Positions 1 to 32,241 of a stretch of DNA of 32,241 bases are shown here, in pieces (position 1 is the first letter of the stretch; each line of letters starts with the position of its first letter). The DNA lies in NCBI GenBank assembly GCA_046153645.1, contig JBJXGI010000049.1, positions 1-32,241 on the forward strand. The letters run 5' to 3'. Source of the stretch: Elusimicrobiota bacterium. GTDB taxonomy: Bacteria; Elusimicrobiota; Elusimicrobia; F11. Under the pieces are notes generated by a model. The model had not been told where the DNA came from. It ran no database searches and saw only the letters and a list, made by a program, of their open reading frames with translations. A program made the translations under genes and the position numbers.

Positions 1-1812
1 CCCGGCAGGCGCATTTACAAAAACCACTTCACCTGTTTTAATGGTGAAAACTTTCCGGTTACCATTACTTTCAAGACCACTCACAATAAGACCTGTAGCA
101 CGAGGATCCAATTCCACGAAAAAGCCATTTTCATAGCTTAAATTTGAAGTATTTAATACTTTGGTTCCCAAATTAACTTTTACACCATTAATCACTGCTT
201 CTTGTGTCACTCGAATAAAGCCCATTTGAGTAATGCCAGGAATAAAAATTTGAACGTGATTTATGTTTTGGGTTCCGATCGGACGAGCCGCATAGAGCTG
301 ATCGTTACGGATAATTATAATGGGGTTCCCATCGGGGCCAATTTCTCCGGTTTCTTCACCTGCTGGAGAAAGTTGCGCCACAGGATTAAAATTTTGAAGA
401 CCTGTTAAAGTAGCGTCAAATAAAACAATTCCAGAGGTCAAATCAAATTCTTTTACTGAACCATCTTTATTTAAAAGTTGAACTGTCATGGAGACTGCTT
501 CAGGGTGAACATTCATTTTAATTCCAGATTTGTAATCAGGAATACTTTCAACATCAATAAGATCAGTTGTGACCAGGCGACCATCAGCTAACTTTTGAGT
601 GATGCGAATAAGCGCATTTTCTGTCGGAAGTGCTGGGATTTGGACACGCGCTTTATTGGGTTGCCCAATCACATTGGGGATATTGGCAAATAATGTATGC
701 CGCACAGAAGGCGCATTGGGCCCAACTTCAATTTTTGCCGGGTTTAATTGAGTGGCCACATATAACGGCGAACCAACACTCACGGTATCAAAAAAATCAA
801 CCCAGCCAGTGGGAGTGGCAAAAGGAATGCCTCTCCCATTTAAATCTTCTAACCCAACCAAAACACCTGTGATACCCGGGTCAAATTGAACAGGAATTCC
901 TTGAACAAAGGTATCGGTATTGGCAGAAATTAAATTGGTCGCCTCAATGCTTCCATCGGCCCTCACCACAAAAACCCGGAGCTGTCTATTAGACGCATTA
1001 GGAATTTGGGGAAGTTGAACTCGCATCACCCCACCTTGCACAGCCAGTTCAACAGGAACAGAGGCATATAACAAATCTTGACGTTCTACTTCTTCATTAT
1101 CAATAACAACCTTAGCAGGCCCAAAAGGAGAGCTGCGCATGTTTTCTGTTTCACTTGGTGAGAGTGGTTTAAACGTGGCCCAACCGGTAGCAGGAGTAAA
1201 GTTAATGGGATTGCCATCTTTATCTACTTGGGACACCGCCACTGTTTTTGTGTCAAGGAGAAGGGAAACTTTGAGGATTCCCCCCACAATATCTCTGCTT
1301 GGAATGAGGCGGGTTCCAATGACTGTATCATCTTGAGATCTTTCAATGACACGAACATAAGTGGCTTGATTTGAAAAATCAGCTTCAATTTGAACCCCAG
1401 TTCCTAACCCCTGCGCCTCTGGACGAATAGCAAAAAGTGTGTCTAACCGTGTTTCTGACAGGGGAGTTAAAAGGCGTGCAGGCGTATCCAGCGGAGTTAA
1501 ATTGCCTAACTTTATAGAGTCCACATTAATAGGAAGGTTATTGCCCAAATCATCTACTCGCACTAAATTTCCTGAAGCGTCTTTTGTATAAATGATCACT
1601 CCCGCTAAATCAGCGTCGTCTCGTTTTAATATATAACCATCCAGATAATTTTTTTCAGACAAAAGTTCAGTGACAGATAAAACAACAGCTTTTCCATCTT
1701 CACCACGTTTAATGCGAAGCACGCGCGCGAAATATTCTTTTCCATCATTCAGAAAAGGGATTTGCACCTTCATGCCATCTTCATCGGGAGAACCTCGGGG
1801 TAAGATTTGGCG
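1..1812 (-). repeat. Tandem ~121-131 aa protein repeats within giant protein A
   Basis: Units start at Arg codons 1812, 1449, 1083, 702 and 309 (RQILPR, RLDTLFAIRP, RQDLLYASVP, RHTLFANIP, RNDQLYAARP), with recurring VQI/VQL, (I/V/L)R(V/I), DG and G-x-x-F elements. Similarity is visible only at the protein level. Confidence 0.7.
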
Positions 1813-4800
1813 AATAGGGAAACCGTCTTTCCCTTTCAAATCAATTCCCAAACCGTTGACGGCAATCACGTTGGCATCAGGCGATGGTTCCGTTTTTGGG
1901 ATTAGTTCAATAAATGGATTGGGAAATACTTTAGAAACAATGCTTCCATCAGGATTAATGGTAAAGGCTGAAAATTGGATCCCGTGAGCGTCAACACCTT
2001 CAGGCACAGCTAAAGTGGCTTTTGGGTTATTAAAAAATGAAACGGGCATAACCTCAACAAAACTTTGAGCGGAAGCAGGGTTACCAATGAAACTTTCTCC
2101 GCCCTCATTTATTGTTACCGCAATTCGATCATTAGGACCAAACCCAGCTGTGTTAAAAATATTAACTTCAAAAGCACCAGTTTGTTCATTGGGAACACCC
2201 GGGAGATTATCTGAGGCGTTTCCAACTAAGGTGGTAAAGTCAGGCACTCCATTTATTGCGGTTGGGTTCGCGGAAAAAGGTTTCCCATCCGCAGCCAAAC
2301 GATTTTCTAATTCAATATTTTGTCCCAATGAAGGTTTTGAAGCCTCTTTTTTGTCTTCAAAAAAACCGACCACCTTATCTTGAACAGTATCCGCAAAATC
2401 AATCACACGACCCCAGAGACGATCAAAAAATGGTAGTGGTGCTGTTGGCTCTTTCGTTTTTCCAGCAGGCGAATTCTCTTCTTTTGGACTAACGTCAACA
2501 CCAGAATTGGTTACTAATGCATTCAAATCATAGGGTTTTTCTTTTTCTGGTGTTCGATATGTACCTTGCTCAACCAAGCTTTTAGAAAAATTAACAACAA
2601 TAGGCGAAGGATCCTGAAGATCTATAGGCGCGAGTGCGGATGAGTCATCATCTCCCAAACTCCTCAACCAATGTGCCACCGGATCAACAGTATTCGACTC
2701 TATTTTCTGTGGAGAACGAACATCAATCGCCCATCCAGTCAAATCTAGATCGTCCGAAGACTTAGAATCCACATCTATTGGTTGAAAATTGTCATCTCCG
2801 GAAGCCTTAGTTGGAGATCCAAGCTCTGGAGTGGTAGATTCCCGACCCGCTTGCTGGCCGACGGGCAGGCTAACACTTTCAGGGATGACGGGCTGTGCAA
2901 TTTGATCTGGCAGACCATCTTTATTTGCCTCCGTTACGAGAATTCTGGAACTCTTATCAAGCTGCATTCTGGATTCGACGTTTTTTGGAGCAACCTTTAC
3001 CTGCGGCCCATCATTCTTGCCTAAGCCGTCATCCCGGCGAAGGCCGGGATCCAGGTCTTGCACCATATTTTGAAGAGGGTTTAAAGCCTGGATTCCCGCC
3101 TGCACGGGAATGACGGCCTGCGTACCCTTTGATGAGGGATTTGTGACGGATACAGCGGGAGTGCCGGCTGCCTTCGCTCCAAACATAGGGTTATAATCAT
3201 AAGGACGAAGAAGTCCTTTAAGAAAATCTTCTTGAGACACATTTTGAGAATTTGTTTTACGAGCAATTGACTTAACGAGGAAATATATAGCAATAACCAA
3301 TAGAACTGCATAAAAAGCGATAGCCTCGGGCCGCAATAAAGCTCTAACAACTTTTTCAGAAGATCCTATTATTGATGCCTGAAGTTGATTATCTTCAAGG
3401 AGAACATAGAGCATTGATAAAAACGCAACCAGTGCAAAACGACCAGTCAACATTTGCATTACTTTTCTAAAACCGCGGCCGAGATAGTTTCCTAAGGTGT
3501 AATTGGTACGCGTTGTTTGGTCAATCGCAAGTCGATAGGTTTTCCCTCTAAAAGGAATGGTTAATAATACTCCTGCTAAAACTGCTAATGATGTAACGAC
3601 GGCGGCGATATTGCCTGTTTGAGTGGTGAGAGTCACCGGGATTGTTTCTTGCCCAACAGCCATGCTTGGAATAGCGGCGAGTAAAGCTAAAAAACCATAT
3701 TGCGTGGAAGCGGCGGCATCCGAACCACCGGGCAATTGCTTCTCAGGAATAACAAAAAGTCTTTCTCCAGAAAAAATTTCTTCGAGGGGCGTTTTATCGC
3801 GGTCAAAAACACTTAAATAGTCACTTCCTGCCAAGTCGTCAATCTTCGTTAATCGCGGTGAAACAACCAAATAAGGAATTTTCTTTTGTTTGAGTAAAAA
3901 CATGATGTCTCTGGAATGGAAACCACCGGTTAAAATAACACGAGGGCGATTTGTTTTTACTTGTAGAACGTTTTTCAACATTTCTTGGCTTCGAATATCG
4001 GCCGATCGGTAAAAATCTTCGAAAGAGTTGAGGGTCTCAATTAAGACATTCGGGGATGAAGAATCTTTCATTTCCTGGTAAAGTTTCCACTCTTCCGGAG
4101 TTAATTCAAATTCAATTAATTTTTCTGCTAATCGAAGATATTCTGAGGTTTGGGCTATTTTTTTATCATTGGCGTCGCGGGAAAGCGTTTGTATGAGCTG
4201 GCGTTCTGTTTTTTCAACACTTTGGAATAAAGAATCAACTTTAATTCCATCAGACAGAAATACGTACCGAATATAATTATCAAAATGTTTAAACTGCGTT
4301 AAATGAATGGCTTTTTTATCACATAAATCTTTTAAATACCGGTAATAAGCGCCAAAACCCATTTGACCTGATTGGTAAGCCACACTGCCCTTGAGCAACT
4401 CTTCTAATTCTGTTTTAGATAATTTCCCGGCCAAGGCATTAACAACGGTGGCTCGCTCCTGCTCAATACGGCGAAAATCAAGCGATTTTTCCATTTGATA
4501 CGCTTGCAAAAATTGCTCGATATGAAGATCCATGTTGTTATCAAGCTGGCTTAATTTTTCAAGGTATTGGGCAAACCCCATTTTCCCTTCATGATAATGG
4601 TCGCGAAAATTTTCAAGCTTTTTCACGCCATCTGAAAGCTGGTTATTTTTAATGCTTTGGAATTCTTTTTTAAATTGAGAAAGCTTTTCTTTCGTGAAAG
4701 ATTTGTTTTTTTGGCTTTTTTGGTAAGCCTCCACATTATTTCTGTAATGTTCAGCGTGATCTATACCTATAATAGGAGGAACAGGATTATTTGAAATACC

Positions 4801-5373
4801 GACAAAAGAAGCCGCTCCCATCAATTTTTCTTTGACAAAAGATTCAGCCAATTCTCTTTTCAAGTTTTGATCCACCGCAACTTGATAAGGCGTAAAATCA
4901 AATTTTTTCCATGCCCCTTCAACCCCAAAAACACCCAATTGATTGTTTTTCATCAGTGACTCAATAACAGCAATCTCATTAAACTGAGCTTCCGAATTTA
5001 AATGGACATCTTGAATGAGAACAACTGGGATGGTATTTGCGGCACTCTCTTTTGGCCAGTAAATATCTCGAACTTGGGCTTTATGGAGAGGAACAGCTTT
5101 CATTAAATTGGTTAAAGGAGAAGGCACATTAATATTTTCAAAAGAGGTGAGGTTTTTACCGATTGTCTGACTGATCACTTCGGTTCGAGGAAGTTGTGGT
5201 ATGAAAGAAGAAGACTGCCCCGGGAGTTGCGCTAACTGCTGTTGGGTTCCTTTCTTCCGATCTTCCCAAATATTGGCTTCAGCCAAAGACCCCAACGCCA
5301 CTTGAGTGGAGAAATAAATGATACTCACAAAAAGACTCGTGAGCCCCTTAAGATTTTTTGTTTTTAAGTTCAT
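1..5373 (-). CDS. Giant secreted/membrane multidomain protein A (3' partial, >1790 aa)
   Basis: Manual read of the minus frame from ATG 5373 (alternative in-frame ATG 5397) to base 1 found no stop. It begins MNLKTKNLKGLTSLFVSIIYFSTQVALGSLAEA-NIWEDRKK (signal-peptide-like). Conserved domain with IQDVHLN, VEG, DIRS, GGFH; hydrophobic segments ~3270-3700; low-complexity linker; beta-rich repeats. Absent from the ORF track because it lacks a stop in the window. Confidence 0.9.
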   Translation of the reverse strand, partial: MNLKTKNLKGLTSLFVSIIYFSTQVALGSLAEANIWEDRKKGTQQQLAQLPGQSSSFIPQLPRTEVISQTIGKNLTSFENINVPSPLTNLMKAVPLHKAQVRDIYWPKESAANTIPVVLIQDVHLNSEAQFNEIAVIESLMKNNQLGVFGVEGAWKKFDFTPYQVAVDQNLKRELAESFVKEKLMGAASFVGISNNPVPPIIGIDHAEHYRNNVEAYQKSQKNKSFTKEKLSQFKKEFQSIKNNQLSDGVKKLENFRDHYHEGKMGFAQYLEKLSQLDNNMDLHIEQFLQAYQMEKSLDFRRIEQERATVVNALAGKLSKTELEELLKGSVAYQSGQMGFGAYYRYLKDLCDKKAIHLTQFKHFDNYIRYVFLSDGIKVDSLFQSVEKTERQLIQTLSRDANDKKIAQTSEYLRLAEKLIEFELTPEEWKLYQEMKDSSSPNVLIETLNSFEDFYRSADIRSQEMLKNVLQVKTNRPRVILTGGFHSRDIMFLLKQKKIPYLVVSPRLTKIDDLAGSDYLSVFDRDKTPLEEIFSGERLFVIPEKQLPGGSDAAASTQYGFLALLAAIPSMAVGQETIPVTLTTQTGNIAAVVTSLAVLAGVLLTIPFRGKTYRLAIDQTTRTNYTLGNYLGRGFRKVMQMLTGRFALVAFLSMLYVLLEDNQLQASIIGSSEKVVRALLRPEAIAFYAVLLVIAIYFLVKSIARKTNSQNVSQEDFLKGLLRPYDYNPMFGAKAAGTPAVSVTNPSSKGTQAVIPVQAGIQALNPLQNMVQDLDPGLRRDDGLGKNDGPQVKVAPKNVESRMQLDKSSRILVTEANKDGLPDQIAQPVIPESVSLPVGQQAGRESTTPELGSPTKASGDDNFQPIDVDSKSSDDLDLTGWAIDVRSPQKIESNTVDPVAHWLRSLGDDDSSALAPIDLQDPSPIVVNFSKSLVEQGTYRTPEKEKPYDLNALVTNSGVDVSPKEENSPAGKTKEPTAPLPFFDRLWGRVIDFADTVQDKVVGFFEDKKEASKPSLGQNIELENRLAADGKPFSANPTAINGVPDFTTLVGNASDNLPGVPNEQTGAFEVNIFNTAGFGPNDRIAVTINEGGESFIGNPASAQSFVEVMPVSFFNNPKATLAVPEGVDAHGIQFSAFTINPDGSIVSKVFPNPFIELIPKTEPSPDANVIAVNGLGIDLKGKDGFPIRQILPRGSPDEDGMKVQIPFLNDGKEYFARVLRIKRGEDGKAVVLSVTELLSEKNYLDGYILKRDDADLAGVIIYTKDASGNLVRVDDLGNNLPINVDSIKLGNLTPLDTPARLLTPLSETRLDTLFAIRPEAQGLGTGVQIEADFSNQATYVRVIERSQDDTVIGTRLIPSRDIVGGILKVSLLLDTKTVAVSQVDKDGNPINFTPATGWATFKPLSPSETENMRSSPFGPAKVVIDNEEVERQDLLYASVPVELAVQGGVMRVQLPQIPNASNRQLRVFVVRADGSIEATNLISANTDTFVQGIPVQFDPGITGVLVGLEDLNGRGIPFATPTGWVDFFDTVSVGSPLYVATQLNPAKIEVGPNAPSVRHTLFANIPNVIGQPNKARVQIPALPTENALIRITQKLADGRLVTTDLIDVESIPDYKSGIKMNVHPEAVSMTVQLLNKDGSVKEFDLTSGIVLFDATLTGLQNFNPVAQLSPAGEETGEIGPDGNPIIIIRNDQLYAARPIGTQNINHVQIFIPGITQMGFIRVTQEAVINGVKVNLGTKVLNTSNLSYENGFFVELDPRATGLIVSGLESNGNRKVFTIKTGEVVFVNAPAG
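2791..2889. repeat. Degenerate palindromic element 2 (GTCAT...ATGAC) in frame inside giant gene A, with a nested 24-bp insertion
   Basis: Inverted arms gtcatctccggaagccttagttggagatcca and (reverse complement, after removing 2846-2869) gtcatccctgaaagtgttagtcgggaatcta match at 22/31. Total length 99 bp = 33 codons. Confidence 0.7.
3025..3117. repeat. Palindromic element 1 (RPE-4/dRS3-like REP doublet) in frame inside giant gene A
   Basis: gccgtcatcccggcgaaggccgggatccagg ... cctggattcccgcctgcacgggaatgacggc. Each arm is itself a hairpin and the two arms are inverted. 3092-3111 is ATTCCC-N8-GGGAAT. 93 bp = 31 codons, translated AVIPVQAGIQ...LDPGLRRDDG. Confidence 0.9.
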
Positions 5374-5520
5374 GTTTAAGTTTATCCATGAATTCATAAC
5401 AAAAGGGTATGAAGTTCGCATTAAGATTGCCTTAACTTTTGGTAAATTTGTCGTAACATTTTTCGATCAGATTTTTGTGTTCCAGTGCCCTTTTTATGAT
5501 GTTCATGAAGATTCCTACCA

Positions 5521-5549
5521 AACTTACGACGGGAAAGCAGTAACTGCAA
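5521..5549 (-). promoter_or_regulatory. Putative sigma70 promoter of giant gene A
   Basis: Minus strand TTGCAG-17 nt-TAAGTT, about 150 nt upstream of the start. Pattern match only. Confidence 0.35.
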
Positions 5550-5654
5550 GAGATATATTGGGGTTTCTAAAGGTTCATAACAGGTTTCAACCGAATTCAG
5601 GCTGTCTTTTCAAAGCGTTTTAGGTTTTTAATACAAATAAAGAGTTTAAAACAA

Positions 5655-5883
5655 CCCCTCACCCTAACCCTCTCCCCGAGGGAGAGGGGAGATTTTTTCT
5701 AAAAAGAAGTGAGCACTGTTTTTCCCAAAGAAGGATCAACCTCTTTTCCCCTCGCCCGATTGCGGGAGAGGGGACATTTTTTTCAAAAGAAGTGAGTACT
5801 GTTTTTCCCAAAGAAGAATCAATCTCTTTTCCCCTCGCCCGCTTGCGGGAGAGGGTTAGGGTGAGGGCCAGGCACCCCCATTC
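5655..5883. repeat. REP-like palindrome cluster (left), with an internal ~84-bp tandem duplication
   Basis: cccctcaccctaaccctctccccgagggagagggga at 5655-5690 and inverted copy cccctcgcccgcttgcgggagagggttagggtgaggg ending ~5867. The linker aaaagaagtgag(c/t)actgtttttcccaaagaag(g/a)atcaa occurs twice (units start 5680 and 5764). Confidence 0.9.
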
Positions 5884-6193
5884 TCATTTTCTCCAAAACC
5901 GCTTCTATTTGACTCAAAACCTCATTATTCCAAAATCGAATTACTGTTAAACCTTGCGTATTAAGATAACGGGAACGAATTTCATCATAAAAACGACTCT
6001 CATCATGATGTCCGCCATCCACTTCTATAACCAACTTCAATTCATAACAATAAAAATCAACTATATAAGGGCCAAGGGGCACTTGCCTTTTAAACTTATA
6101 TCCAAAAAATCTTCTGCTTCGGAGTTGGTACCAGAGAACGGATTCTGCTTTTGTTTGATCTTTGCGAAGTTGCCGAGCGAAATGAATATCCAA
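5819..6193 (-). CDS. DUF559 / Vsr-like (PD-(D/E)xK-type) endonuclease
   Basis: ARQLRKDQTKAESVLWYQLR...FKRQVPLGPYIVDFYC...LVIEVDGGHH...D..R...L...G..VIRFWNNEV are DUF559 hallmarks. The start is probably TTG 6193, preceded by AAAGGAAGG (the track uses 6244). The C-terminus PHPNPLPQAGEG is encoded by the REP. Confidence 0.9.
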   Translation of the reverse strand: MDIHFARQLRKDQTKAESVLWYQLRSRRFFGYKFKRQVPLGPYIVDFYCYELKLVIEVDGGHHDESRFYDEIRSRYLNTQGLTVIRFWNNEVLSQIEAVLEKMRMGVPGPHPNPLPQAGEGKRD

Positions 6194-6250
6194 AGTTTGC
6201 CTTCCTTTGGAGAGGATGGTTGAAGGGGGTTTGTAGATTAGCAAATTTAT

Positions 6251-6460: not shown

Positions 6461-7045
6461 TTAGTCTTTTTTCTGAATTTTCATTTTTAGGAAGTTTTTT
6501 AAAATTGTTTTTCCACCTTCCGTTAAAATGGATTCTGGATGAAACTGAACCCCTTCCAGAGCTTTTAACTTTAGATGGCGAACACCCATAACTTCACCTT
6601 GACTTGTTTTGGCGGTGATTTCAAATTCGTTCATAATGCTGGTAGGTTCTGCCAATAGAGAATGATAACGCGTAGCCGTAAATTTATTAGGAAGCCCCTT
6701 AAACACCCCTTTCCCGTCATGAATAATTTCTGAGGTTTTCCCATGCATGAGTCTTTTAGCACGAATAATATTGCCACCAAAAGCGTGGCACATCGCCTGG
6801 TGCCCCAAACAAACTCCCAAAATAGGAATTTGACCTGCAAATCGACGGATGAGATCAATGGTAATTCCGGCGTCTTCCGGACGACCGGGTCCGGGAGAAA
6901 TAACAATATGCGATGGTTTAAGACGGCGAATAGTATCTAAATCAATCTCATCATTTCGGTAAATCTCTAATTTTTGACCCATCTCGCCCAAATACTGAAC
7001 CAAGTTATAAGTAAAGGAATCATAATTATCAATCACAAGAATCAT
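6461..7045 (-). CDS. trpG: Anthranilate synthase component II / glutamine amidotransferase (TrpG/PabA)
   Basis: IDNYDSFTYNL, SPGPG, GVCLGHQ, RYHSL, QFHPES; overlaps the trpE stop. Confidence 0.9.
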   Translation of the reverse strand: MILVIDNYDSFTYNLVQYLGEMGQKLEIYRNDEIDLDTIRRLKPSHIVISPGPGRPEDAGITIDLIRRFAGQIPILGVCLGHQAMCHAFGGNIIRAKRLMHGKTSEIIHDGKGVFKGLPNKFTATRYHSLLAEPTSIMNEFEITAKTSQGEVMGVRHLKLKALEGVQFHPESILTEGGKTILKNFLKMKIQKKD

Positions 7046-19625: not shown

Positions 19626-19628
19626 CAA

Positions 19629-22928: not shown

Positions 22929-22933
22929 ATTTT

Positions 22934-24214: not shown

Positions 24215-25839
24215 CTTGTGCCCCAATGGGTTTTATTCATGGTCAAAATGGCGTAATACGTTTGCCAACATAAAACGCATAAATAAAGAACAGCGAAAAT
24301 AAGGCCATAGTACCAATTAGATTTTTTTGTCTGATGGAGGTAAATAAGGCATAGAAGTAAATACACCAAAGAGACCCCAATAAAATAGGACAAAGGAGAA
24401 ACACCTAAAATAGCGGGGCCATAAATAACCGCTCGTAAAAAAACCAAAGGTGAACACAAAGTGACAATGGTCCCCACAAAAAAAGAAATAAAAGCAATCG
24501 GATGTTTTTTAAGCAAAATAAAACCCGCAATGGGAGCTTCTCTGGCCCACGATTTCTTCCATCTGAGTTGCTGTCTAAAAAATGTTTTAAAGTTACTAGG
24601 AACAAAAGTAACGCAATTGGCATTGGAATGATAAAGAACTTTATAATTCCTTAAAATATAATTCGTTAAACTTCTGTCATCTCCAAAAGTGGCTTTTACA
24701 CCCAAGAAAGTTTGATTCAGCCATTTGGGTAATACCTCGAGAACAGCTTTCTTTCGATAAGCTGAAAATGCGCCAGGACAACAGGTGACTGTTCCAAAAA
24801 TACTTTCAGCCGTCTTAAAAAGCTGGTGCGATATAAAATAACGAACCGCTTCCATTTTTGAAATGATATTTTTATCTTCAAGAATAACGCGCGTATGCCC
24901 TGCCACTGCCGCCACTTTTCGGTCATAAAAAGGTTGAACAATTCGGTAGAAACTTTCGTGTTCCATATAACTATCGGAATCAACATAAACCAAGATTTCG
25001 CCATTAGCGCTTTCAGCTCCCACAGCCATTCCGTGGCGTTTACCTCTATTTTCAGGAAATTTGACGAGTCTCAATTTCGGATACTTATCTTCAATGGACT
25101 TTAAAACATCCCACGTTTTATCATCGGAACCATCATCAATAACAATGAGTTCCATAAGTCGACGGGGATATTTTGTTTTGAAAATTCGATCTACTGTTTC
25201 AGCAATGTGATCCTGTTCATTTTTAACAGAAATAATAACGGAAATAGAGGGCATATACCCTTTATCTTTTGGCTCTCTATAAAAAAGTGAAAGGAATATT
25301 CGGCTTAAGAAAAAGAAACCAGCCATTAAACTATAAGTATGGAGAAGAGGATCATACCAGTACCACTTCACATCTCTATGCTTAAGGAAAAGAATAAGAC
25401 CAATAACAACCCCCATCATAGCCAAGGTCACAAAAGCCTGAAAATAGCCTTTTTCAATCTGAGCCATTTCATTTAAAGGTCGTTCGAAACGAACAGTCAG
25501 ATAAACGCCCTCAATAGTCGCCCAAGAGCGAGTGACAATAGCTTCTAACTTTAGTTTTTTTGCGGGAAACCCCGCTGTCATGGTTTCAGGCGTACAAGGA
25601 AGAGCAACTTTTAATTTTTTCCCAACTTTAAAAACAGTCCTTTCATCCTTAATAAAGATTTGAAGGCCAAACTGACTAAGATTTACAGATCTTGCTGCCC
25701 ATTTTTTACCAAAAAATCGTAAACCAGAAAAAAGTGTTAGTGGGATTGAAATTTTTGTTCGGTTATATCTGCGATTATCAATAGAATCAACAAATGTATT
25801 ACTGGAATTTTCTTCCTGAATAACTGAAGGGGTATTCAT
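24211..25839 (-). CDS. PilZ-domain + processive GT2 synthase (hyaluronan synthase/NodC-like)
   Basis: N-terminal RRYNR...NLSQFG (PilZ RxxxR, NxSxxG); 2 TM helices; DDGS, VDSD, CCPGAFSAYR, GDDRSLTN, QQLRWKKSW; C-terminal TM helices ending WGTR. Confidence 0.88.
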   Translation of the reverse strand: MNTPSVIQEENSSNTFVDSIDNRRYNRTKISIPLTLFSGLRFFGKKWAARSVNLSQFGLQIFIKDERTVFKVGKKLKVALPCTPETMTAGFPAKKLKLEAIVTRSWATIEGVYLTVRFERPLNEMAQIEKGYFQAFVTLAMMGVVIGLILFLKHRDVKWYWYDPLLHTYSLMAGFFFLSRIFLSLFYREPKDKGYMPSISVIISVKNEQDHIAETVDRIFKTKYPRRLMELIVIDDGSDDKTWDVLKSIEDKYPKLRLVKFPENRGKRHGMAVGAESANGEILVYVDSDSYMEHESFYRIVQPFYDRKVAAVAGHTRVILEDKNIISKMEAVRYFISHQLFKTAESIFGTVTCCPGAFSAYRKKAVLEVLPKWLNQTFLGVKATFGDDRSLTNYILRNYKVLYHSNANCVTFVPSNFKTFFRQQLRWKKSWAREAPIAGFILLKKHPIAFISFFVGTIVTLCSPLVFLRAVIYGPAILGVSPLSYFIGVSLVYLLLCLIYLHQTKKSNWYYGLIFAVLYLCVLCWQTYYAILTMNKTHWGTR

Positions 25840-25944
25840 AAATTTATTACAAGCACAAGTACGACTTGCGCTTTTTCTCCTAAATATGGTGTTGCGGTTG
25901 GGTTTCTAAGGCGAACTAGATGGATATTTTCTTAGAATGCCGAG

Positions 25945-25972
25945 ATTCTATCAGAAAATATTTTTTTGTAAA
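25945..25972 (-). promoter_or_regulatory. Putative promoter of the synthase operon
   Basis: Minus strand TTTACA-16-TAGAAT with extended TG. Confidence 0.5.
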
Positions 25973-26127
25973 GCTTTCTTCCGTCTAAGCAGTTAAATCA
26001 TAGGAAAGGGAGTCTCCTTCATCATATACCTCCTCAATAAAGATATTCGACCGGTGAAATCAAGATGTTTTGATTTTAATAGGAATTTAATCAGAATGTA
26101 ATGAGTTTTTAACAACTTTCATATATA

Positions 26128-26136
26128 TTATCCACA
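26128..26136 (+). promoter_or_regulatory. Single DnaA-box consensus match
   Basis: TTATCCACA 10 nt upstream of the giant gene B start; isolated copy, could be chance. Confidence 0.25.
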
Positions 26137-26146
26137 TAAACACAAT

Positions 26147-29100
26147 ATGAAAAAAACAATTTTACTTTTAACCATCCTTTATGGAATGAACATCATTCTC
26201 TCCCCACTGGCTCAAGCAAGTATCTGGGGTGATCGCAGGAAAGCCCTTGAGTCTAAGGAAAAACCTGTCCTCTTGGCAGCCGTTCCAACGCAACACTCCG
26301 ATATTCGTTTTCCCGGAATCAACTTCAATCAACCACAATCAAATAGCTTAACTGCACTTATAAATAATAATGGAAAGAACAATAATATCCCCGCTAACTC
26401 AAAAAACATAATTGGAATTATTGCCCGCAATAAAGGCTTAGTAAAAGAAACATTTTTCCCAAGACAACGAAATTCTTCTCCCATACTCATTATTCAAGAT
26501 GTGCATTTGAATAATGAGGCCCAAGAAAATATTTCCAACATCCTCCAAGAGCTCATTTCAAAGGAAGAAATTGATTCAGTTTCAGTTGAAGGCGTAGAAG
26601 GCCCTTTTGATGTTGAGAGGTTCCAAGCTTTCCCCAATAAAGACCTTATTTATCAAGCCAGTAAAGATTTCATGGTTAAAAACCTTATTAACGCTCCCTC
26701 TTTTGTCGCGATAAACAATCAAAACCTCGATTTACATTTTCAAGGCGTGGATGATAATAACCACTACAAAAAGAATATTTTGGCTTATAAAAATTCAATC
26801 AAAAATAAATCGCAACTCACTTCTGAAATTAACAGCTTCACGGAGACATTAATAGAGAAAAAAGCATTAACCTCACCTGAACTGCAACAAATCTTCAAAT
26901 TAAGAGAACAATATGAGAAAGGAAATATTGAATGGGGAGCCTACGTTAAAGACATGGCTTCAAAAGATGAGGAACTTGATTTTTCAATAGAACAATTTCT
27001 TGGAGCTTATAACTTAGAAAAAACATTGAACTTTTCATTAGTTGATAATCAAAGAAAATTAATTCTTGAAAAATTAACAAAAAAACTATCAGATCAAGAA
27101 GTTAACTTCCTTTTTGAACTAAGCCTAGCGCATAGGGCTGGGAACATCTCATTTGGCGATTTTTTTAAATATCTACAAAACTTATGCCAATCTAAAAACA
27201 TTAATCTAAAAGCGACTCCTCAATTCGAGAAATATATTCAATATGTTTTACTAACAGACCAAATTAATCCAGATAAATTATTAACTGCGATAGAAAACCT
27301 TCAAGAAAGAGTTTTTCATCGGTTTTCTAAATCAGAAGAAGAAAAGACCATTTCCCAACTAGATCAATTTTTAATCCACCTCAATAAATTGGCATCTTTC
27401 TCTCTGACTCCACAAGAATGGATTTCTTATAAAGATTTAAAGAAAAAAATTGAGCAGAAAAATATTATCCCCAAATTCAATATCGCTGAGAACGAACAAT
27501 TTTATATTGAAGCAGACATAAGATCCGAAAAAATGTTAACTAAAGTTCTCTCTTTTAGACAAAGAAAACCAATCGTCCTTATTACTGGTGGATTTCATAC
27601 CTTCGAAATAACAAGCACTCTTAAAAAGAAAAATATTCCTTTTATCACCATATCCCCAAAACTAGAAAAAATTGAAACACTCAATGGTTCAGAATATCTT
27701 TCAGTGTTTTCAAGCGAAAAAGCACCTTTGGAAAAGTTATTCGCGGGTGAAAAGCTATTTTTACAACCCGAATCCTCCGTGGGAGGATTCCCAGGAGGGC
27801 CACAATCGATTGTTAGGACGACTCTCATTGCTGTCATCGGCGTCCTCCACCTACTCGCTGGAATGGCCACCCCTCAAAAGACAGGAATTATTAATCATTC
27901 ATCAAAAGGGAACAACTATACAATTGTCACTGCTGGAGAAAATTCTCCACCCCAAACCTTTATCGCTAGAACAGACGCGGCACCAACTGAATCAGGAGAG
28001 TTAGAAACATCTGGAATCCGCATTCATCGCTCAACGCCTGGTGCGTGGGCAGTACTAATAGAACCCATTTTTAAATTATTCGAAAAAAATATTTTTAAAA
28101 AAATTAAACCTTCAAAACTAGCTCAATTTAAAATCGGAACTTCTGGTTTTATAGAAGGGTCTATCGCGGCTTTCGTTTTTATCACCTATAGAGATCAATT
28201 ATTGATCGCAACCAGTCTTTGGTTTATTGCCAATGCCTTCATACATCTTTTTGGTATTTATTACTGGGACACAGAAAAACAAAAATGGGTCATTAAATCA
28301 TTCATTAAATTGGGTTCTCGCCCTTCAGAAGAAGGATTTACTTCTTATCTAGGAGGAAGAATACATGTCAATTTCTCAACAAATTTCTTCCAAGATTATT
28401 GGATAGCCATATTTAAATCTTCAACAAGCTTACTTGGATTTATTTATGCACTTTTCAGTGGAAATGTATTTATGATTCTTTTCTTAAGCATTGTTCCCCA
28501 CGTCTCTTCCGCTTATTCAAATCTCTATGAAAGAGAAACAAAACGCAGACGCGCCGTTGACGAATTGGCGGACAAGATGGATAAATACGAAAAACTTTTA
28601 GATGCCATTAATCAAAATAAACTAGGAAATACAAGCGCTTTCGATCAAAAAATTTCTCTTACAGGTGAGACAGATAGCGAATTACAAAGTCTTCTTAATG
28701 AATATTCGGTAGCGCAGCTTCTCCATCTCAAAAAAGCTCCTTTCGAGAAAATGAGACTCATTCGTTTTTCTAGACCTGGAACAACCTACGACGGAGAAGG
28801 CCCCGGTATTAAAACACTCAATGACACAATTGGGTTTAATGCCAACGATCAAGTCATCGATTGGACCATGAATTTTTTATATGAAGAATTGACGCGTGAA
28901 TTGCGTACCCAAGGACTTCTTTCAGATTCTGCCGGCTTCATTAAACTAGCAGTCGAATCAAAAGGGATTGTGGTTGCCGTCCCAGATGATGGACGTATTT
29001 CTGAACAACAATATATAGAGTTGGCTAAAAAAGTCACAGAAAATGTATCAGCAAGAATGATAAGTGAATTAACTAAGAAAAGAAATGGGGATCAAAACAA

Positions 29101-32100
29101 TCGCAGCAATGAAGCCATTGTAAGCCTAGTACAACTTTTTCAAAAAGAAGGAAAACTACCTGAAGAATTAACATTCCCTCTTTATTTTGGCATGAGTGAA
29201 CAATTCAATTCTTCTAAACTTACTGCGGAAGAGCTGGTTGTAAAAGCGGCAACAACAATGACTGCCGCAAATTTATACAGAGCATTAAAAATCGTTTTTC
29301 CAGAATTAGAAGATTCAAGCCAATATTCGTTATTTTCACAAAATTCAATGGCTTTTCTGAAAGAGGAATATCGCAAAACAATCGACGAATTAATCAACCT
29401 AAAAGCAGGTAGCATAAAAAATGGTTCTTATTTTTCATTAGATGTCCCAATAAAAAATGGCTCTAACGCCAGTAAAAGAGAAATACTCAAAAAACACTTT
29501 AAAGATCCCCAAACAATAGAAAGAATCATTTTTCTCATTAATAAAGAAGGCTTGTTAAAAAATGCTTTTGACTTTCAAACTCCTTGGGTTGGAAGCAATC
29601 AGAAAGAAGAAATTATCGAACAAGCCATCAAATTAGAAAAATATATTGGAAACACAAAAGAACTGACCATCGATGAAATAGTAGAACTAAGGTCGCTTTT
29701 ACTACGACATCCACGTTTTACAGAGATGGGATCAAAAGCGGGCTATTTTGGTGAAACGGTTACTGATAATCCTCTTTCAGAAGAAGAGAAAAATAACCCG
29801 AGAACTGCATACCTATTTATCGATGCTCGAGGTTTTGGCGATCGAATAAAAGTAAATTTAGCGCAAACAGCTTATCTTATAGCTGAACAATCCCCTGAAA
29901 ATATTTTAGATGCTTATGCTTCTGCCATGTTAACCCTCGGAGATGGAACTCTTAATCCTTTTGCCGCCATGTTTACCGAAATAAAACAATATATTGACGA
30001 TTATGTAGCAACTCAAGATAGCCCCGCACAAAATTATTTTGGTGGTGACGATAATGCTTTTGCAGTTCCATTATCAGGAGTTTATACAGAAGATGCAAAA
30101 GAACTAAAACCGGGTTTGATTGAAGAAATTTTCAAAATTACTCAAAAACATGGTTTTCCAATAAGAATGTTAGCTACAAGTACTTTACCCTATTTATCAC
30201 GAACCAGAGCCGAAGACACACCGAATAAAAAGAAAGCACTGGCCATTAGTCTCTTAGACATACTAACGGATGTTTCTAAGGGCATCGAAAAAAATAACGC
30301 TATCTTTGAGGAAAAAGTGGAGCAAGCTGTTGTATACGCCGACGGAGTAGAAGCTTTTTATGCGCGAGGGATAAAATTAGAAAAAAATAATTTAATTTAC
30401 AATGATCCCGTTCTTATAAAACCGGGGCAAGAATTCACCAACTCAATATTTGTGAGAGCAATAACTAGAATAAAGTCATTATTATCAAAAACAATTTTAG
30501 GTGATCGCTCAAACCCAAATAGAAAGTTAGGTAGATTTTTTGAATGGACCGGGTCTTTAAGTTTTATTGCCACCGGATTTAACACAATCATTATTTATTC
30601 TTTTCACTACGCACTTTCATATGTATTGGGTCAAATTTTTAATCTTAATGCTTTTTTAATTTTCATCTCTATCCCCCCTGTTCTTATTGTTTGGCTACTT
30701 ACACCAATACAGAAATTTCTTCAAGGCCCCCCAAGCACTGTCACAACAATGAAAGAATATTCTAAAAACAATCTTATTTCTCGAATAAAGGTTAATGCTC
30801 GCTATGCAATACTGGGAGAAATACCAGGGGAGAAAAGGCCTACCATTAAATTAACCAAAATTATTTCCAATATCTTTAACGGTGGTTATATTAACAAGCA
30901 TACAGACAGAATTTTCCAAAGTCTTGTCATCGCTATTTTTCATTACGTGGCTGTTCTTTCTCTGGGAATGGGCTCAACGGCAAATATAAGCGCAACCATC
31001 TTATTTTTAAACGGGTTTCTGATACTTTGGGTTAGTTTTACCAGCTGGAATATTTTAACTCTTTCTCATCTTCAAATAGGCCCTTTTACCGAGAATATTG
31101 CGGCTAAAAGAGCTCAAAGAAAACCATTTTTGTTGCCTACCTCCGAAAACGAGAAAAAATCTCTATCGGCCGTAGTCACTAATTCTGTTCCTACTCACGA
31201 CCTATTCAGAAGACAACCAACTGGCGGTCTCATTCCCATCTTATATCGGTTTTTTATTGATTCGCGATTAGTGCGAGTTATTTCGAAAGTTACGGGTTTT
31301 ACAAATGATTCAATTACAAGATATTTTGTTGTCCCCCTCATTGAACAAATTATTTTTTCTATCCCACTTATCATTCTCGCCAATCATTTGGCATTAATAG
31401 AAGGGTCTCCTATAACCAAGGCTCTTATTTATTTTTCTATTGCTCTTGTTGTGCAATTGTTATTTATCGTTGCTCATATTTTTAGATTAGATTCCACTCA
31501 ACGAGAGGGTTATTTACTTAATAATTTCGTTTATATTATTTCTGTAGCCGTCTTTAACATAATGATTGGGGCGCTATTTTTAAACCCAAATTTCTCAGAA
31601 TTCGTCTCTATTTTTATAGTGGGCTATCTTTTTCATGGAACCATTATTAATCCTATAGCAAAAGGCCAGGAAATTGCCGATTTCAATTTAAGCTTAAGTC
31701 GCCTCATTAATGCAAAAGATGAAAAAGTCTCAAAAACCCTTGAAAGAAATGGAGGGGTCAATGTTTTATATTTACCCAGTCTTCTGTCCCAAGAAATTAA
31801 GGCGGTAGAAACAATAGACGACCTCATAGAATTATCTGCGACCGGCAACACCATCGCCACTATTTTTAAAGAACAAGACCCCGATATTTATTCAAGTGTT
31901 ATTAGTTTCAATCAAATCATTCAATCCATAGAAACAATACGAACTCAAATTTCAGAACTTTCTTTAACAAAAAATTCAATGGGAAATATCACGCTGACAA
32001 GACTGAGCAGCAAATTGAATTATTTATTCTCAATATTCGAATCTTTCTTAAAAAAATCTGAAAATCATTTAGAATTAGATCAACAAATGCTCAGTAACGC

Positions 32101-32241
32101 ATACACGATTTTAAATAATAATCGTGATTTTCTAGGTGCTCGTTATGACAAATTTTTACAATTATTAAATGAGCGACCACTATTAGAACAAATGAAAAGA
32201 AAAAGCCATTCTAAAATTCTTAATCGAATTCTAAAGGTTAT
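26147..32241 (+). CDS. Giant secreted/membrane multidomain protein B (3' partial, >2030 aa)
   Basis: Manual read from ATG 26147 to the window end found no stop. It begins MKKTILLLTILYGMNIILSPLAQA-SIWGDRRK and shares the N-terminal domain with giant A. TM clusters ~28140-28510, ~30550-31070 and ~31320-31650; GGDEF/palm-like segments 28750-30300. Confidence 0.92.
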   Translation, partial: MKKTILLLTILYGMNIILSPLAQASIWGDRRKALESKEKPVLLAAVPTQHSDIRFPGINFNQPQSNSLTALINNNGKNNNIPANSKNIIGIIARNKGLVKETFFPRQRNSSPILIIQDVHLNNEAQENISNILQELISKEEIDSVSVEGVEGPFDVERFQAFPNKDLIYQASKDFMVKNLINAPSFVAINNQNLDLHFQGVDDNNHYKKNILAYKNSIKNKSQLTSEINSFTETLIEKKALTSPELQQIFKLREQYEKGNIEWGAYVKDMASKDEELDFSIEQFLGAYNLEKTLNFSLVDNQRKLILEKLTKKLSDQEVNFLFELSLAHRAGNISFGDFFKYLQNLCQSKNINLKATPQFEKYIQYVLLTDQINPDKLLTAIENLQERVFHRFSKSEEEKTISQLDQFLIHLNKLASFSLTPQEWISYKDLKKKIEQKNIIPKFNIAENEQFYIEADIRSEKMLTKVLSFRQRKPIVLITGGFHTFEITSTLKKKNIPFITISPKLEKIETLNGSEYLSVFSSEKAPLEKLFAGEKLFLQPESSVGGFPGGPQSIVRTTLIAVIGVLHLLAGMATPQKTGIINHSSKGNNYTIVTAGENSPPQTFIARTDAAPTESGELETSGIRIHRSTPGAWAVLIEPIFKLFEKNIFKKIKPSKLAQFKIGTSGFIEGSIAAFVFITYRDQLLIATSLWFIANAFIHLFGIYYWDTEKQKWVIKSFIKLGSRPSEEGFTSYLGGRIHVNFSTNFFQDYWIAIFKSSTSLLGFIYALFSGNVFMILFLSIVPHVSSAYSNLYERETKRRRAVDELADKMDKYEKLLDAINQNKLGNTSAFDQKISLTGETDSELQSLLNEYSVAQLLHLKKAPFEKMRLIRFSRPGTTYDGEGPGIKTLNDTIGFNANDQVIDWTMNFLYEELTRELRTQGLLSDSAGFIKLAVESKGIVVAVPDDGRISEQQYIELAKKVTENVSARMISELTKKRNGDQNNRSNEAIVSLVQLFQKEGKLPEELTFPLYFGMSEQFNSSKLTAEELVVKAATTMTAANLYRALKIVFPELEDSSQYSLFSQNSMAFLKEEYRKTIDELINLKAGSIKNGSYFSLDVPIKNGSNASKREILKKHFKDPQTIERIIFLINKEGLLKNAFDFQTPWVGSNQKEEIIEQAIKLEKYIGNTKELTIDEIVELRSLLLRHPRFTEMGSKAGYFGETVTDNPLSEEEKNNPRTAYLFIDARGFGDRIKVNLAQTAYLIAEQSPENILDAYASAMLTLGDGTLNPFAAMFTEIKQYIDDYVATQDSPAQNYFGGDDNAFAVPLSGVYTEDAKELKPGLIEEIFKITQKHGFPIRMLATSTLPYLSRTRAEDTPNKKKALAISLLDILTDVSKGIEKNNAIFEEKVEQAVVYADGVEAFYARGIKLEKNNLIYNDPVLIKPGQEFTNSIFVRAITRIKSLLSKTILGDRSNPNRKLGRFFEWTGSLSFIATGFNTIIIYSFHYALSYVLGQIFNLNAFLIFISIPPVLIVWLLTPIQKFLQGPPSTVTTMKEYSKNNLISRIKVNARYAILGEIPGEKRPTIKLTKIISNIFNGGYINKHTDRIFQSLVIAIFHYVAVLSLGMGSTANISATILFLNGFLILWVSFTSWNILTLSHLQIGPFTENIAAKRAQRKPFLLPTSENEKKSLSAVVTNSVPTHDLFRRQPTGGLIPILYRFFIDSRLVRVISKVTGFTNDSITRYFVVPLIEQIIFSIPLIILANHLALIEGSPITKALIYFSIALVVQLLFIVAHIFRLDSTQREGYLLNNFVYIISVAVFNIMIGALFLNPNFSEFVSIFIVGYLFHGTIINPIAKGQEIADFNLSLSRLINAKDEKVSKTLERNGGVNVLYLPSLLSQEIKAVETIDDLIELSATGNTIATIFKEQDPDIYSSVISFNQIIQSIETIRTQISELSLTKNSMGNITLTRLSSKLNYLFSIFESFLKKSENHLELDQQMLSNAYTILNNNRDFLGARYDKFLQLLNERPLLEQMKRKSHSKILNRILKV

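Follow-up and report, generated by a model that had tools for sequence, protein, structure and literature searches.

Giant genes A and B, which run off opposite ends of this contig, belong to a very large Elusimicrobiota family of paralogues that encode giant inner-membrane proteins with many passes. The contig was analysed whole, at its full length of 32,241 nucleotides (the window). In each member a variable remainder, the cargo, follows a constant start made up of a Sec-type signal sequence, then a conserved W-x-(E/D)-R-(R/K)-K motif, then a domain of ~450 residues with the TIKI/ChaN/erythromycin-esterase fold, here called the head. Judged by sequence comparison, the homology underlying family membership is beyond doubt; activity, localisation and cleavage are all computed predictions.

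Giant gene A occupies positions 1..5421 on the reverse strand (1807 codons, 3'-open at the contig start) and giant gene B positions 26147..32239 on the forward strand (2031 codons, 3'-open at the contig end); both open frames are real and both leave the contig. The start of A is ambiguous, with ATG 5397 or 5373 more likely than ATG 5421, which is disfavoured because it sits within an upstream repeat element. The public gene call for A, at 1791 aa, corresponds to a start at 5373, as also chosen in an earlier sequence-only reading of this DNA. That reading took both genes to have been missed by the open reading frame track; gene callers found both, and both are present in the public protein collection; they are absent from the open reading frame list because the list drops frames that run off the ends.

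A BLASTP comparison aligns residues 28-611 of A with residues 4-596 of B (198/601 identities, 33%; E 9e-96), and because the second-best segment reaches only E 0.088, nothing downstream of the head is alike in the two proteins. Counted from the signal peptide, the common N-terminal region spans ~560 residues. These results agree with the sequence-only reading, which had described a shared N-terminal module followed by unrelated sequence: all of the motifs that it listed are found in both proteins, the C-termini, whose homology over a full-length alignment it had named as the counter-case, are not alike, and its shared folded domain stands, although at ~450 rather than ~420 residues. In A the N-terminal hydrophobic segment, a signal peptide or signal anchor preceded by lysines, comprises residues 27-47 (5281..5343, reverse strand), and is followed by the conserved motif EANIWEDRKK (residues 48-57; 5251..5280, reverse strand), in which W52 and R55 are conserved across at least 90% of 40 paralogue heads. 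In B the signal peptide (residues 1-24) and the SIWGDRRK motif (residues 25-32) together occupy 26147..26242 on the forward strand. The head domain proper covers residues 113-560 of A (3742..5085, reverse strand), with the TIKI/ChaN/Ere-like alpha/beta core contributed by residues 113-220 and 494-525, and residues 95-545 of B (26429..27781, forward strand).

The head is found at 47 loci in this 2.6-Mb genome, distributed over 34 of its 105 contigs and amounting to at least 103,063 codons and at least 11.8% of genome bases, with an identity between paralogous heads of only 25-44%. Of 41 related genomes 22 contain it, as do 62 of the 201 genomes sampled from the phylum, and ~9,840 metagenome protein clusters contain it at E<=1e-3. 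Of the 150 proteins listed as matches, 148 have the head starting no later than residue 33. Headed proteins reach more than 10,000 residues, and head-only proteins of 540-620 residues also occur. The sequence-only reading had called for a paralogue count, and held that a head confined to A and B, or a family with a function already described, would speak against it; the 47 loci dispose of the former, and no description of the head family was found in print.

An AF2 model of the head (pLDDT 80.5) shows a parallel beta-sheet at the centre of an alpha/beta core, with helices on its flanks; this is the architecture of the TIKI superfamily. VIA-align places ChaN at the top (2g5g; 190 residues aligned, rmsd 5.8) with a Z of 9.2, a moderate score given that unmatched models typically reach 7-8 according to the tool, and the other top rows are HopBA1 (5t09, 8.2), EreC (6xcq, 7.8), 2qgm (7.7), 2rad (7.0), PMT (2ebf, 6.0) and RRSP (5w6l, 5.8). 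In the accessible text of PMC6254334, PMT (2EBF), HopBA1 (5T09), Bcr135 (3B55) and ChaN (2G5G) are listed under the TIKI superfamily, to which RRSP and the Ere family are also assigned. Foldseek searches with the head model gave no match at E<=0.001 in the PDB (best 0.21) and none in BFVD (best 0.027), and the head profile returned only unrelated matches among PDB sequences (E>=0.1). The core is split by a ~240-residue helical insert that matches PF23202 in 18 of 40 heads and 2ld7 at Z 5.9; in A it is seen in the secondary structure of the model as an all-helical, partly PAH-like segment at residues 222-486 (3964..4758, reverse strand). PF04187 (ChaN, Tiki superfamily) gives weak matches (E<=1) in 18 of 40 heads, the best at 4.9e-6; A scores 14.5 bits (E 0.035), below the curated cut-off of 27.7 bits, and neither A nor B matches any Pfam model of the TIKI superfamily at its cut-off. 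All nine PF04187 matches in the genome lie in head loci, and two of them pass the cut-off when neighbouring stretches are summed. Because of these sub-threshold scores, we describe the head as a relative within the TIKI superfamily rather than as a member of the PF04187 family.

The family alignment reveals a complete set of catalytic-type residues in the head: D-x-H, an E 28 residues on, an R, and GGFH. In A these are D138, H140, E168, R477 and H502, invariant in 40 of 40 paralogues along with G499 and G500, and in B they are D118, H120, E148, R459 and H484 with identical spacings. Across 192 proteins of the family, whose identity falls to as little as 20%, the set is retained in 188-192. It matches the 2His/2Glu motif (E-x-H, E, H) of the superfamily with Asp replacing the first Glu, and its His-to-Glu spacing of 28 equals that of H85/E113 in Bcr135 and H3902/E3930 in RRSP (accessible text of PMC6254334), the correspondence being one of order and spacing and not of superposition. 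We infer that the head is a periplasmic, active hydrolase, either a peptidase or an esterase.

Compared with the superfamily at large (ChaN, PF04187; Ere; BcR135/136, 3B55/2QGM/2RAD/6XCQ; HopBA1; RRSP of MARTX; Tiki; TraB/PrgY/GumN), the head thus shares the alpha/beta core with its parallel sheet, the 2His/2Glu-type set, and an Arg ~25-29 residues before the second His. ChaN, Tiki and PrgY are extracytoplasmic, as the head is predicted to be. It differs in the Asp, in the partly PAH-like insert, in the W-x-E-R-R-K after the signal peptide, and in fronting proteins that can exceed 10,000 residues, with 20-47 copies in a genome. The exported TIKI-like domain and following helix bundle of PrgY/TraB-type proteins correspond to the minimal unit of the head giants, but the giants carry thousands more residues of other modules, and in sequence they differ: PF01963 (TraB_PrgY_gumN) has no match in the genome at E<=1e-5, the listing of 25 families that match the 40 heads does not include it, and hhalign of the head profile with one true TraB-family protein gives a probability of 2.5% (E 0.018), the sole aligned stretch pairing R...GGFH of the head with RN...GSAH.

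The cargos begin at the membrane. In A, 3-4 hydrophobic helices are clustered after the head (residues 575-716; 3274..3699, reverse strand), followed by a Pro/Ser/Asp-rich stretch without a recognised domain (residues 717-1204; 1810..3273, reverse strand) and five tandem repeats of ~120 residues that leave the contig (residues 1205-1806; 4..1809, reverse strand). In B, ~5 hydrophobic helices and then a basic ETKRRR follow the head (residues 551-782; 27797..28492, forward strand), and two more membrane-helix clusters (residues 1470-1835; 30554..31651, forward strand) precede a C-terminal soluble part without a recognised domain that leaves the contig (residues 1836-2031; 31652..32239, forward strand). 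The N-terminal flank is basic, and basic loops occur after the first post-head helix in both proteins; by the positive-inside rule the cargo is computed to open with membrane-helix bundles and to continue on the cytoplasmic side. Most cargo modules, including a GGDD cyclase-like domain in B, would therefore face the cytoplasm. The repeat array of A probably continues on another contig, C38, which has a 7,736-codon frame with no Pfam match. The two share no terminal k-mers of 21-141 nt, Logan contigs matching window positions 1-1500 are pieces of 228-508 nt, none of which covers the first 134 bases, and an Atlas search with the repeats gave no usable match.

By the hydropathy of 46 paralogues and by Pfam, a signal peptide is combined with numerous membrane helices and varied enzyme domains in one very long chain. 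Pfam domains are found in 18 of the 39 other cargos scanned. Domains recognised in cargos of the family include AAA_5, sigma-70 r2/r3/r4, helicases, methyltransferases, NUDIX, IMPase, HATPase_c, cNMP_binding, aldo-keto reductase and adenylate kinase. In an all-against-all comparison of 41 cargos, A and B match none, and some modules are shared between paralogues as a mosaic. An iterated HMM for a common membrane module behind the head picked up just 11 of 40 paralogues, neither A nor B among them. A CPBP/Rce1-like module was considered as part of the constant head, since a MAFFT consensus gave FxxxH/HxxxN, yet PF02517 matched only 4 of 40, and with the HMM reaching 11 of 40 this module is a subgroup feature. 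In a general Pfam scan at E<=0.1, no SecA-like DEAD helicase, C39 or S8 domain was seen in A or B; helicases of other kinds occur in two paralogues.

Residues 1170-1480 of B (29654..30586, forward strand) form a predicted palm nucleotide-cyclase-like module of the GGDEF/Cas10/mCpol fold. Confidence in the model is low (pLDDT 58.4, from 4 sequences); VIA-align gives Z scores of up to 10.0, and 48 of the 50 rows listed are palm domains (GGDEF, Cas10/Cmr2, mCpol, class III cyclase and GTP cyclohydrolase III); Atlas leads point to mCpol/Cas10 at 0.83-0.86. In common with GGDEF diguanylate cyclases, Cas10/Cmr2 and mCpol the module has a candidate metal-binding Asp, D1226 within FIDARGFG (FIDxRGFG), and a GGDD loop at 1299-1302, both invariant in 4 of 4 relatives. 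It differs from GGDEF cyclases in having GGDD and not GG(D/E)EF, and in lying between membrane bundles of a giant protein. No Pfam family matches residues 531-2031 of B at E<=0.001, with PF00990, PF22335 and PF18182 all unmatched, and residues 800-1480 matched only themselves among 5.8 billion proteins.

The sequence-only reading had suggested the logic of polymorphic effectors, in which the head would serve an uncharacterised secretion system as its export or targeting unit, and the cargo delivered would be interchangeable effectors or toxins. Unrelated C-terminal parts behind a constant head, and the mosaic sharing of some modules, are what this would predict, and Rhs- and CdiA-type toxins likewise keep the N-terminal part constant and vary the C-terminal one. 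In such families, however, the N-termini are near-identical, the C-terminal toxin is short, an immunity gene lies adjacent and there is a dedicated secretion domain, and none of these features turned up in the head family: its heads are just 25-44% identical, its cargos contain many membrane helices and cytoplasm-type enzymes, head-only proteins exist, and BLASTP of flanking open reading frames in the genome found no conserved small neighbour of the immunity type. No neighbour family is shared by more than six loci, and the six-locus one is a DUF4143/AAA_14 ATPase. Secretion genes, which that reading had proposed to look for, are absent from the window, and neither A nor B has a secretion-related Pfam domain. 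B has an orthologue in another genus that is collinear over 1523 residues (26% identity, E 1e-116), so head and cargo have been inherited together with no recent interchange; the nearest relative of A is an 8,881-codon frame. The cargo is thus not a secreted effector, and the delivery explanation is very improbable and largely refuted. What survives is a constant head with variable cargo and, because the head is exported and enzyme-like, a possible processing role.

Both genes are preceded by four direct repeats. The element of A (5420..5459, reverse strand) has TTAC/TTAA cores at 5456, 5445, 5435 and 5424, spaced by 11, 10 and 11 bp, and ends 22 nt before ATG 5397; that of B (26074..26113, forward strand) has TTAA/GTAA cores at 26076, 26087, 26098 and 26109 in exact 11-bp phase, followed by a TATATT-like box at ~26124. 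Three phased TTA[AC] cores are found upstream of 17 of 42 head genes as compared to 11 of 910 control open reading frames, and TTAAK-N5-7-TTAAK precedes 22 of the 42, in most of which it stops 22-24 nt short of the start codon, although this enrichment is overstated because the patterns were defined after inspecting the same upstream regions. The activator-type promoter they share suggests joint induction of the family.

As a whole, a giant membrane family with an exported, hydrolase-type TIKI-fold head is the best explanation, and we regard it as plausible if somewhat short of probable. More tentative is the specific proposal that the head works in cis as a maturation protease, to which the retention of an intact head by each of the ~47 giants points. 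The head would trim the conserved N-terminal peptide and/or cut periplasmic loops, and the giant precursor would yield membrane-anchored pieces. A periplasmic head could, however, reach only periplasmic loops, and a purely self-processing role is not required since head-only proteins imply action without cargo in cis. The fullest form of the proposal, in which the giants are polyproteins cut at periplasmic loops into membrane-anchored modules by their own TIKI-fold protease, and together, at between an eighth and a quarter of the genome, form one regulon with a shared activator-dependent, nearly leaderless promoter, is unlikely; if true, bacteria would be using a way of expressing genes that is otherwise known from viruses.

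The head could instead follow a receptor logic, as a periplasmic sensor or trans-acting envelope enzyme that binds or cleaves an external or envelope substrate and controls cytoplasmic modules through the membrane bundle. Several cargos are signalling or regulatory (HATPase_c, cNMP_binding, sigma-70 r2/r3/r4, the GGDD cyclase-like domain, AAA+ modules in paralogues), head-only forms show that the head can work alone, B is divergent to a polysaccharide synthase operon, and PrgY/TraB-type proteins, with a TIKI-like ectodomain and membrane helices in signalling, are a precedent for the layout. We nonetheless find this doubtful: IMPase, NUDIX, aldo-keto reductase, adenylate kinase and methyltransferases are ordinary metabolic enzymes and would be unusual receptor outputs, and 47 ligand specificities would be hard to place in a pocket whose catalytic-type site is invariant across the paralogues. 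It is less likely again that the head, instead of being catalytic, serves for docking, ligand binding or insertion, whether for haem or cofactor binding, as an envelope anchor, or as a starter for Sec/YidC insertion of long many-pass chains. Its best structural match, ChaN, is a haem-binding lipoprotein and not an enzyme, which also counts against a catalytic head; the head is always the first exported part among the proteins listed; and the TIKI fold alone does not mean catalysis, because PMT has the fold and lacks the catalytic motif (accessible text of PMC6254334). The retention of D-x-H/E/R/GGxH at the spacing of active members in 188-192 of 192 proteins is, however, expected of a catalytic or metal site and not of a scaffold.

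A cis-processing head would parallel the N-terminal C39/S8 peptidases that are proposed to cut the chain in Omnitrophota giants (accessible text of bioRxiv 10.1101/2023.11.21.568195), proteins which also combine a signal peptide with numerous membrane helices and enzyme domains of diverse kinds (the same preprint and bioRxiv 10.64898/2026.06.07.730766, accessible text). Very long chains, HATPase_c, NUDIX, methyltransferases, AAA_5 and a peptidase-like domain near the N-terminal signal peptide are common to both groups as far as the accessible text goes, but the likeness is one of design, in another phylum and with peptidases that are C39/S8 and not TIKI-like. The accessible text of neither preprint mentions a TIKI-like head ('tiki' 0 in that of 2026; 'erythromycin' 0, 'chan' 1 occurrence in that of 2023). 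Elusimicrobiota are reported to be unusually rich in huge proteins, which are called uncharacterised (accessible text of PMC11573180), and the head provides a common handle for many of them, as one conserved, probably catalytic, exported domain in ~47 genes and ~ten thousand clusters. If it is a self-acting protease, whether the giant products work whole or in pieces becomes testable with one small domain. The family would tether cytoplasm-type enzymes, sigma-factor modules, AAA+ rings and a Cas10-like cyclase to the membrane, an unusual organisation for a small cell.

The other genes in the window are trp, his, murA and prfA genes and a polysaccharide operon, and B is oriented divergently to the polysaccharide synthase operon.

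Both ends of the contig, which is present in its entirety and is one of 105 in the 2.63-Mb genome, are occupied by giant genes that run off it. In an ORF listing with open ends, giant A comprises 1807 codons on the minus strand (1..5421) and leaves the contig at its start, and giant B comprises 2031 codons on the plus strand (26147..32239) and leaves it at its end. The sequence-only reading had described both as missed by the ORF track, which applies to ORF lists that drop end-open frames but not to gene callers; a public collection includes A and B, with 1791 and 2031 residues respectively. When the two are compared by BLASTP, a single strong segment emerges (A 28-611, B 4-596; 198 identities in 601 positions, E 9e-96), all other segments having E values of 0.088 or worse, and every motif quoted in that reading is found in both proteins, so its observation of a shared N-terminus followed by unrelated remainders holds. 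Neither protein reaches a curated Pfam cut-off; at E<=0.1, B has no match and A just one, below threshold (PF01367, 16.8 bits; cut-off 40).

The shared N-terminal module (the head, everything behind it being the cargo) marks a family and not a pair, and the observation is thus far larger than could be seen from the window. With the A and B heads as queries, tblastn finds 47 head loci on 34 contigs of the genome, 46 of them at E 1e-24 or better and the remaining one at E 6e-6. Head-bearing frames range from about 1,300 to 10,179 codons and sum to at least 103,063 codons, or 11.8% of the genome, a sum that leaves out the head gene on contig C67 with its frame of 3,136 residues. Frames of at least 1,000 codons number 93 and make up 23.4% of the genome, and 41 of these bear a head; C79:12477-38690 (+) and C87:10610-30481 (+) are examples of long frames genome-wide.

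The head is present in 22 of 41 relatives, including all 11 same-family genomes, with 18-45 matches each, and, at E<=1e-10, in 62 of the 201 genomes sampled across the phylum. Of 1.84 billion cluster representatives, a profile of 40 paralogue heads matches 9,840 at E<=1e-3, a number that falls to 6,659 when E<=1e-30 is required. Among the 150 proteins listed from this search, which are 553-6,142 residues long, the best head stretch starts within residues 1-33 in 148; those with a source name are labelled either as hypothetical proteins from Elusimicrobia, Endomicrobium or Candidatus Obscuribacterium or after a cargo domain. In a pattern scan across species genomes, 294 of 325 head candidates were confirmed; the MAGs that supply the best 80 of these 294 all bear the label Elusimicrobia/Elusimicrobiota or Candidatus Obscuribacterium magneticum.

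The 40 aligned heads have 14 invariant columns, including D138, H140, Q146, E168, R477, G499, G500 and H502 (A numbering). An AlphaFold2 model from this alignment (pLDDT 80.5) has a small alpha/beta core with strands at 115-121, 133-138, 164-173, 217-220, 494-499 and 517-522, split by an all-helical insert at 222-486. Foldseek finds no significant match to this model in the PDB. VIA-align against 48,161 chains places ChaN at the top (2g5g, Z 9.2), followed by HopBA1 (5t09, 8.2), EreC (6xcq, 7.8), 2qgm (7.7) and 2rad (7.0), with PMT (2ebf, 6.0) and RRSP (5w6l, 5.8) lower down, Z values that only moderately exceed the tool's stated usual level for unmatched models. Excerpts of the RRSP structure paper (PMC6254334) place RRSP and the Ere family in the TIKI superfamily, and give PMT (2EBF), HopBA1 (5T09), Bcr135 (3B55) and ChaN (2G5G) as members. 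The ChaN family of Pfam (PF04187, Tiki superfamily) gives matches at E<=1 in 18 of the 40 heads, the best at 4.9e-6 (A scores 14.5 bits, the cut-off being 27.7), and all nine of its matches genome-wide lie inside head loci, which may be taken as weak sequence support for the fold, independent of the structure search. We conclude that the head is a divergent TIKI superfamily member outside all of the superfamily's Pfam families; as a branch of this known superfamily it is new and very divergent, and the architectural role it fills is unusual.

According to the same excerpts of PMC6254334, the catalytic set of active members is 2His/2Glu, represented in RRSP by E3900, H3902, E3930 and H4030, with R4001 required too; the corresponding residues of Bcr135 are H85 and E113. 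The A head contains D138-x-H140, E168, R477 and then H502 within GGFH, and the same set in B is D118, H120, E148, R459 and H484. The His-to-Glu distance from H140 to E168 is 28 residues, the same as in RRSP and Bcr135, the pairing of residues between the head and these proteins being drawn from order and spacing rather than from coordinate superposition. The site residues are retained in 188-192 of the 192 family proteins aligned to the profile, among them ten just 20-32% identical to A. The head very probably has a working active site, as predicted from sequence, and would presumably act as a hydrolase. When the head profile is compared by hhalign with one true TraB-family protein the result is not significant (probability 2.5%), and the sole aligned stretch pairs R...GGFH with RN...GSAH. 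Three heads (L015, L016 and L017) have an in-frame insert of ~25 residues (KSPKLKK...NLDFGNYQ type) between the positions of R477 and G499 of A.

In every paralogue a basic stretch and a hydrophobic segment lead directly into a conserved motif with the consensus x-E-T/S-x-x-W-x-E-R-R/K-K. In both A and B, basic residues are few or absent on the head-facing side of the first post-head helix, and the loop at its other end is basic. The family also contains head-only proteins, which have only the N-terminal hydrophobic segment and stop a few residues past a P-K-I-T motif. They include a same-strand tandem pair of 602 and 559 residues in another class of the phylum (ORFs 3557-5365 and 6715-8394 of locus L140, G044:C56:20000-34000, with a 382-residue ORF in between), and a 540-residue and a 621-residue protein on contigs of 324 kb and 143 kb. 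From the N-terminal layout, the charges flanking the helix and the head-only proteins, we infer that export takes the head to the periplasm and that it forms an autonomous unit. Genes for a Cache/HAMP/PAS histidine kinase, a LysM/FecR protein and a response regulator with GGDEF lie near the L140 pair.

In hydropathy plots, almost every paralogue has a helix cluster around residues 560-780, with more clusters downstream. An iterated HMM detects a CPBP/Rce1-like module immediately behind the head in 11 of 40 paralogues (L001, L002, L003, L004, L007, L016, L017, L024, L028, L033 and L040), with FxxxH and HxxxN present and EExxxR absent in most; PF02517 matches four of the 40 post-head regions, and one has an M50-like match. 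This HMM does not reach A or B, so the constant part ends at the boundary where the sequence-only reading had placed it. Its description of a constant head with variable cargo is also correct, since all-against-all BLASTP of 41 cargos yields merely scattered mosaic matches, and none for the cargos of A and B.

Pfam domains are detected in 18 of the 39 other cargos. These are AAA_5 in three paralogues, VWA in one (the longest, on C86), cNMP-binding, HATPase_c, SNF2 and SF1 helicases, methyltransferases, metallophosphatase, UDPGP and an SdiA-regulated propeller, together with sigma-70 region 2 in L011 (G000:C15:3-3242, G000 being the genome under study), L016 (G000:C31:7194-14603) and L019 (G000:C71:4299-9779), the last two also having region 4 and the last one region 3. 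A single chain of these sigma-70 giants has as many as four stretches of region 4, between membrane bundles. The longest paralogue, L001 (G000:C86:21853-41851; whole gene C86:11312-41851, 10,179 codons), combines AAA_5 and VWA with ~52 hydrophobic segments arranged in a repeating pattern. In relatives elsewhere, the modules found are aldo-keto reductase, inositol monophosphatase, NUDIX, adenylate kinase, GT2, GNAT, M48 and HEAT. The cargo modules are of cytoplasm type and are not toxins. Two neighbouring genes recur: a DUF559 (endonuclease-like) gene upstream of A (5819-6244, minus strand) is found near three head loci, and a DUF4143/AAA_14 ATPase gene lies near six in varying orientation (e.g. 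L143, G000:C100:65513-66655). BLASTP of the ORFs flanking the head loci of this genome reveals no small partner gene that is conserved.

Behind its head, A has three to four helices, a Pro/Ser-rich stretch and then, at residues 1205-1806 (window 1-1809, minus strand), five tandem repeats of ~120 residues that run off the contig. Beyond A, these repeats are seen solely where a frame of 7,736 codons, open at its 5' side and lacking any Pfam match, begins at the end of contig C38 (G000:C38:32998-56205, minus strand; L136, L137). Since the repeats are found only there, the orientation fits, and the first C38 unit is 64% identical to the last of A, A probably continues on C38 to a total of at least 9,500 codons; neither a terminal overlap nor a bridging contig was found at this junction. 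The nearest head relative of A (41% identity) heads an 8,881-codon frame, the later part of which has just faint similarity to A (E 8e-4).

Residues 800-1480 of B have no relative among 5.8 billion proteins at the sensitivity of that search, and three relatives in same-family genomes; FIDxRGFG and FGGDD are common to all four sequences. The model of this cargo is of low confidence (pLDDT 58.4) and has the beta-alpha-alpha-beta-beta-alpha-beta order of a palm domain. Palm domains of GGDEF, Cas10/Cmr2, mCpol, class III cyclase and GTP cyclohydrolase III proteins account for 48 of the 50 listed VIA-align matches (Z up to 10.0), and an Atlas search agrees on the palm/cyclase lead with scores of 0.83-0.86. 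The palm-like module should face the cytoplasm because the chain reads ETKRRR after about five helices. From the signal peptide through the GGDD domain, B is collinear with a 1,792-codon frame of a different genus (E 1e-116; 393 identities over 1523 residues), head and cargo being co-inherited.

A polysaccharide operon adjoins B at 17192-25839. It includes a GT2/chitin-synthase-like synthase (24211-25839), divergent from B on the opposite strand, a 430-residue protein and a 1099-residue TPR and polysaccharide-deacetylase protein also opposite to B, and a GH18-like protein and a UDP-sugar dehydrogenase on the strand of B. The synthase N-terminus contains RxxxR and NxSxxG, a PilZ-like pair read by eye; the PilZ family is not among its Pfam matches at E<=0.001. 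The adjacency of this pair to the cyclase-like domain of B hints at second-messenger control.

Each giant retains its own intact head though dozens coexist in the cell, which argues for action in cis, and the role we consider most likely for the head, at a probability well below even, is that of a maturation protease working on its own chain. Excerpts of a bioRxiv preprint (10.1101/2023.11.21.568195) describe Omnitrophota giants with C39 and S8 peptidases beside the signal peptide, proposed there as chain cutters, and by analogy these would support such a role. Against it stand the existence of head-only proteins and a reach limited to periplasmic loops. The head could instead be a sensor or a trans-acting enzyme coupled to the cytoplasmic modules, to which we assign a rather low probability, or a non-catalytic docking or insertion module, which we consider unlikely. 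The interpretation offered in the sequence-only reading, a head that serves a secretion system for effectors, is not right in view of cargos that are cytoplasm-type modules rather than toxins, and we regard it as very improbable.

A search of the portion of the literature open to full-text queries found no description of a TIKI-like head on Elusimicrobiota giants; within that searchable literature the head family is undescribed, and its function is testable. Excerpts of PMC11573180 report that huge proteins are enriched in Elusimicrobiota and that these received no COG assignment. The Omnitrophota giants, as portrayed in excerpts of two preprints, are similar in design and belong to a different phylum.

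Direct repeats with TTAC/TTAA cores at 11 bp spacing lie upstream of many head genes, those of A at 5420-5459 on the minus strand (cores at 5456, 5445, 5435 and 5424) and those of B at 26074-26113 on the plus strand (cores at 26076, 26087, 26098 and 26109). In many paralogues a TATAAT-like box stands ~10 bp past the repeats, and its position only ~7 nt from the start codon suggests that head-gene mRNAs are nearly leaderless. The pattern TTAAK-N5-7-TTAAK is found upstream of 22 of 42 head genes (23 hits observed, 0.5 expected given 312 genome-wide), usually ending 22-24 nt 5' of the start, and three phased cores precede 17 of the 42, compared with 11 of 910 other ORFs of at least 300 codons; because the patterns were picked post hoc from these same sequences, the enrichment is overstated yet still large. 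The repeats resemble activator sites standing in for a -35 box; pho boxes are activator sites that take the place of this element. Headless giants of 8,738 and 6,624 codons also carry the TTAAK-N-TTAAK element, 22-28 nt upstream, and several other giants lacking the head, whose 5' parts are cut off where a contig stops, may be parts of 3'-open head genes.
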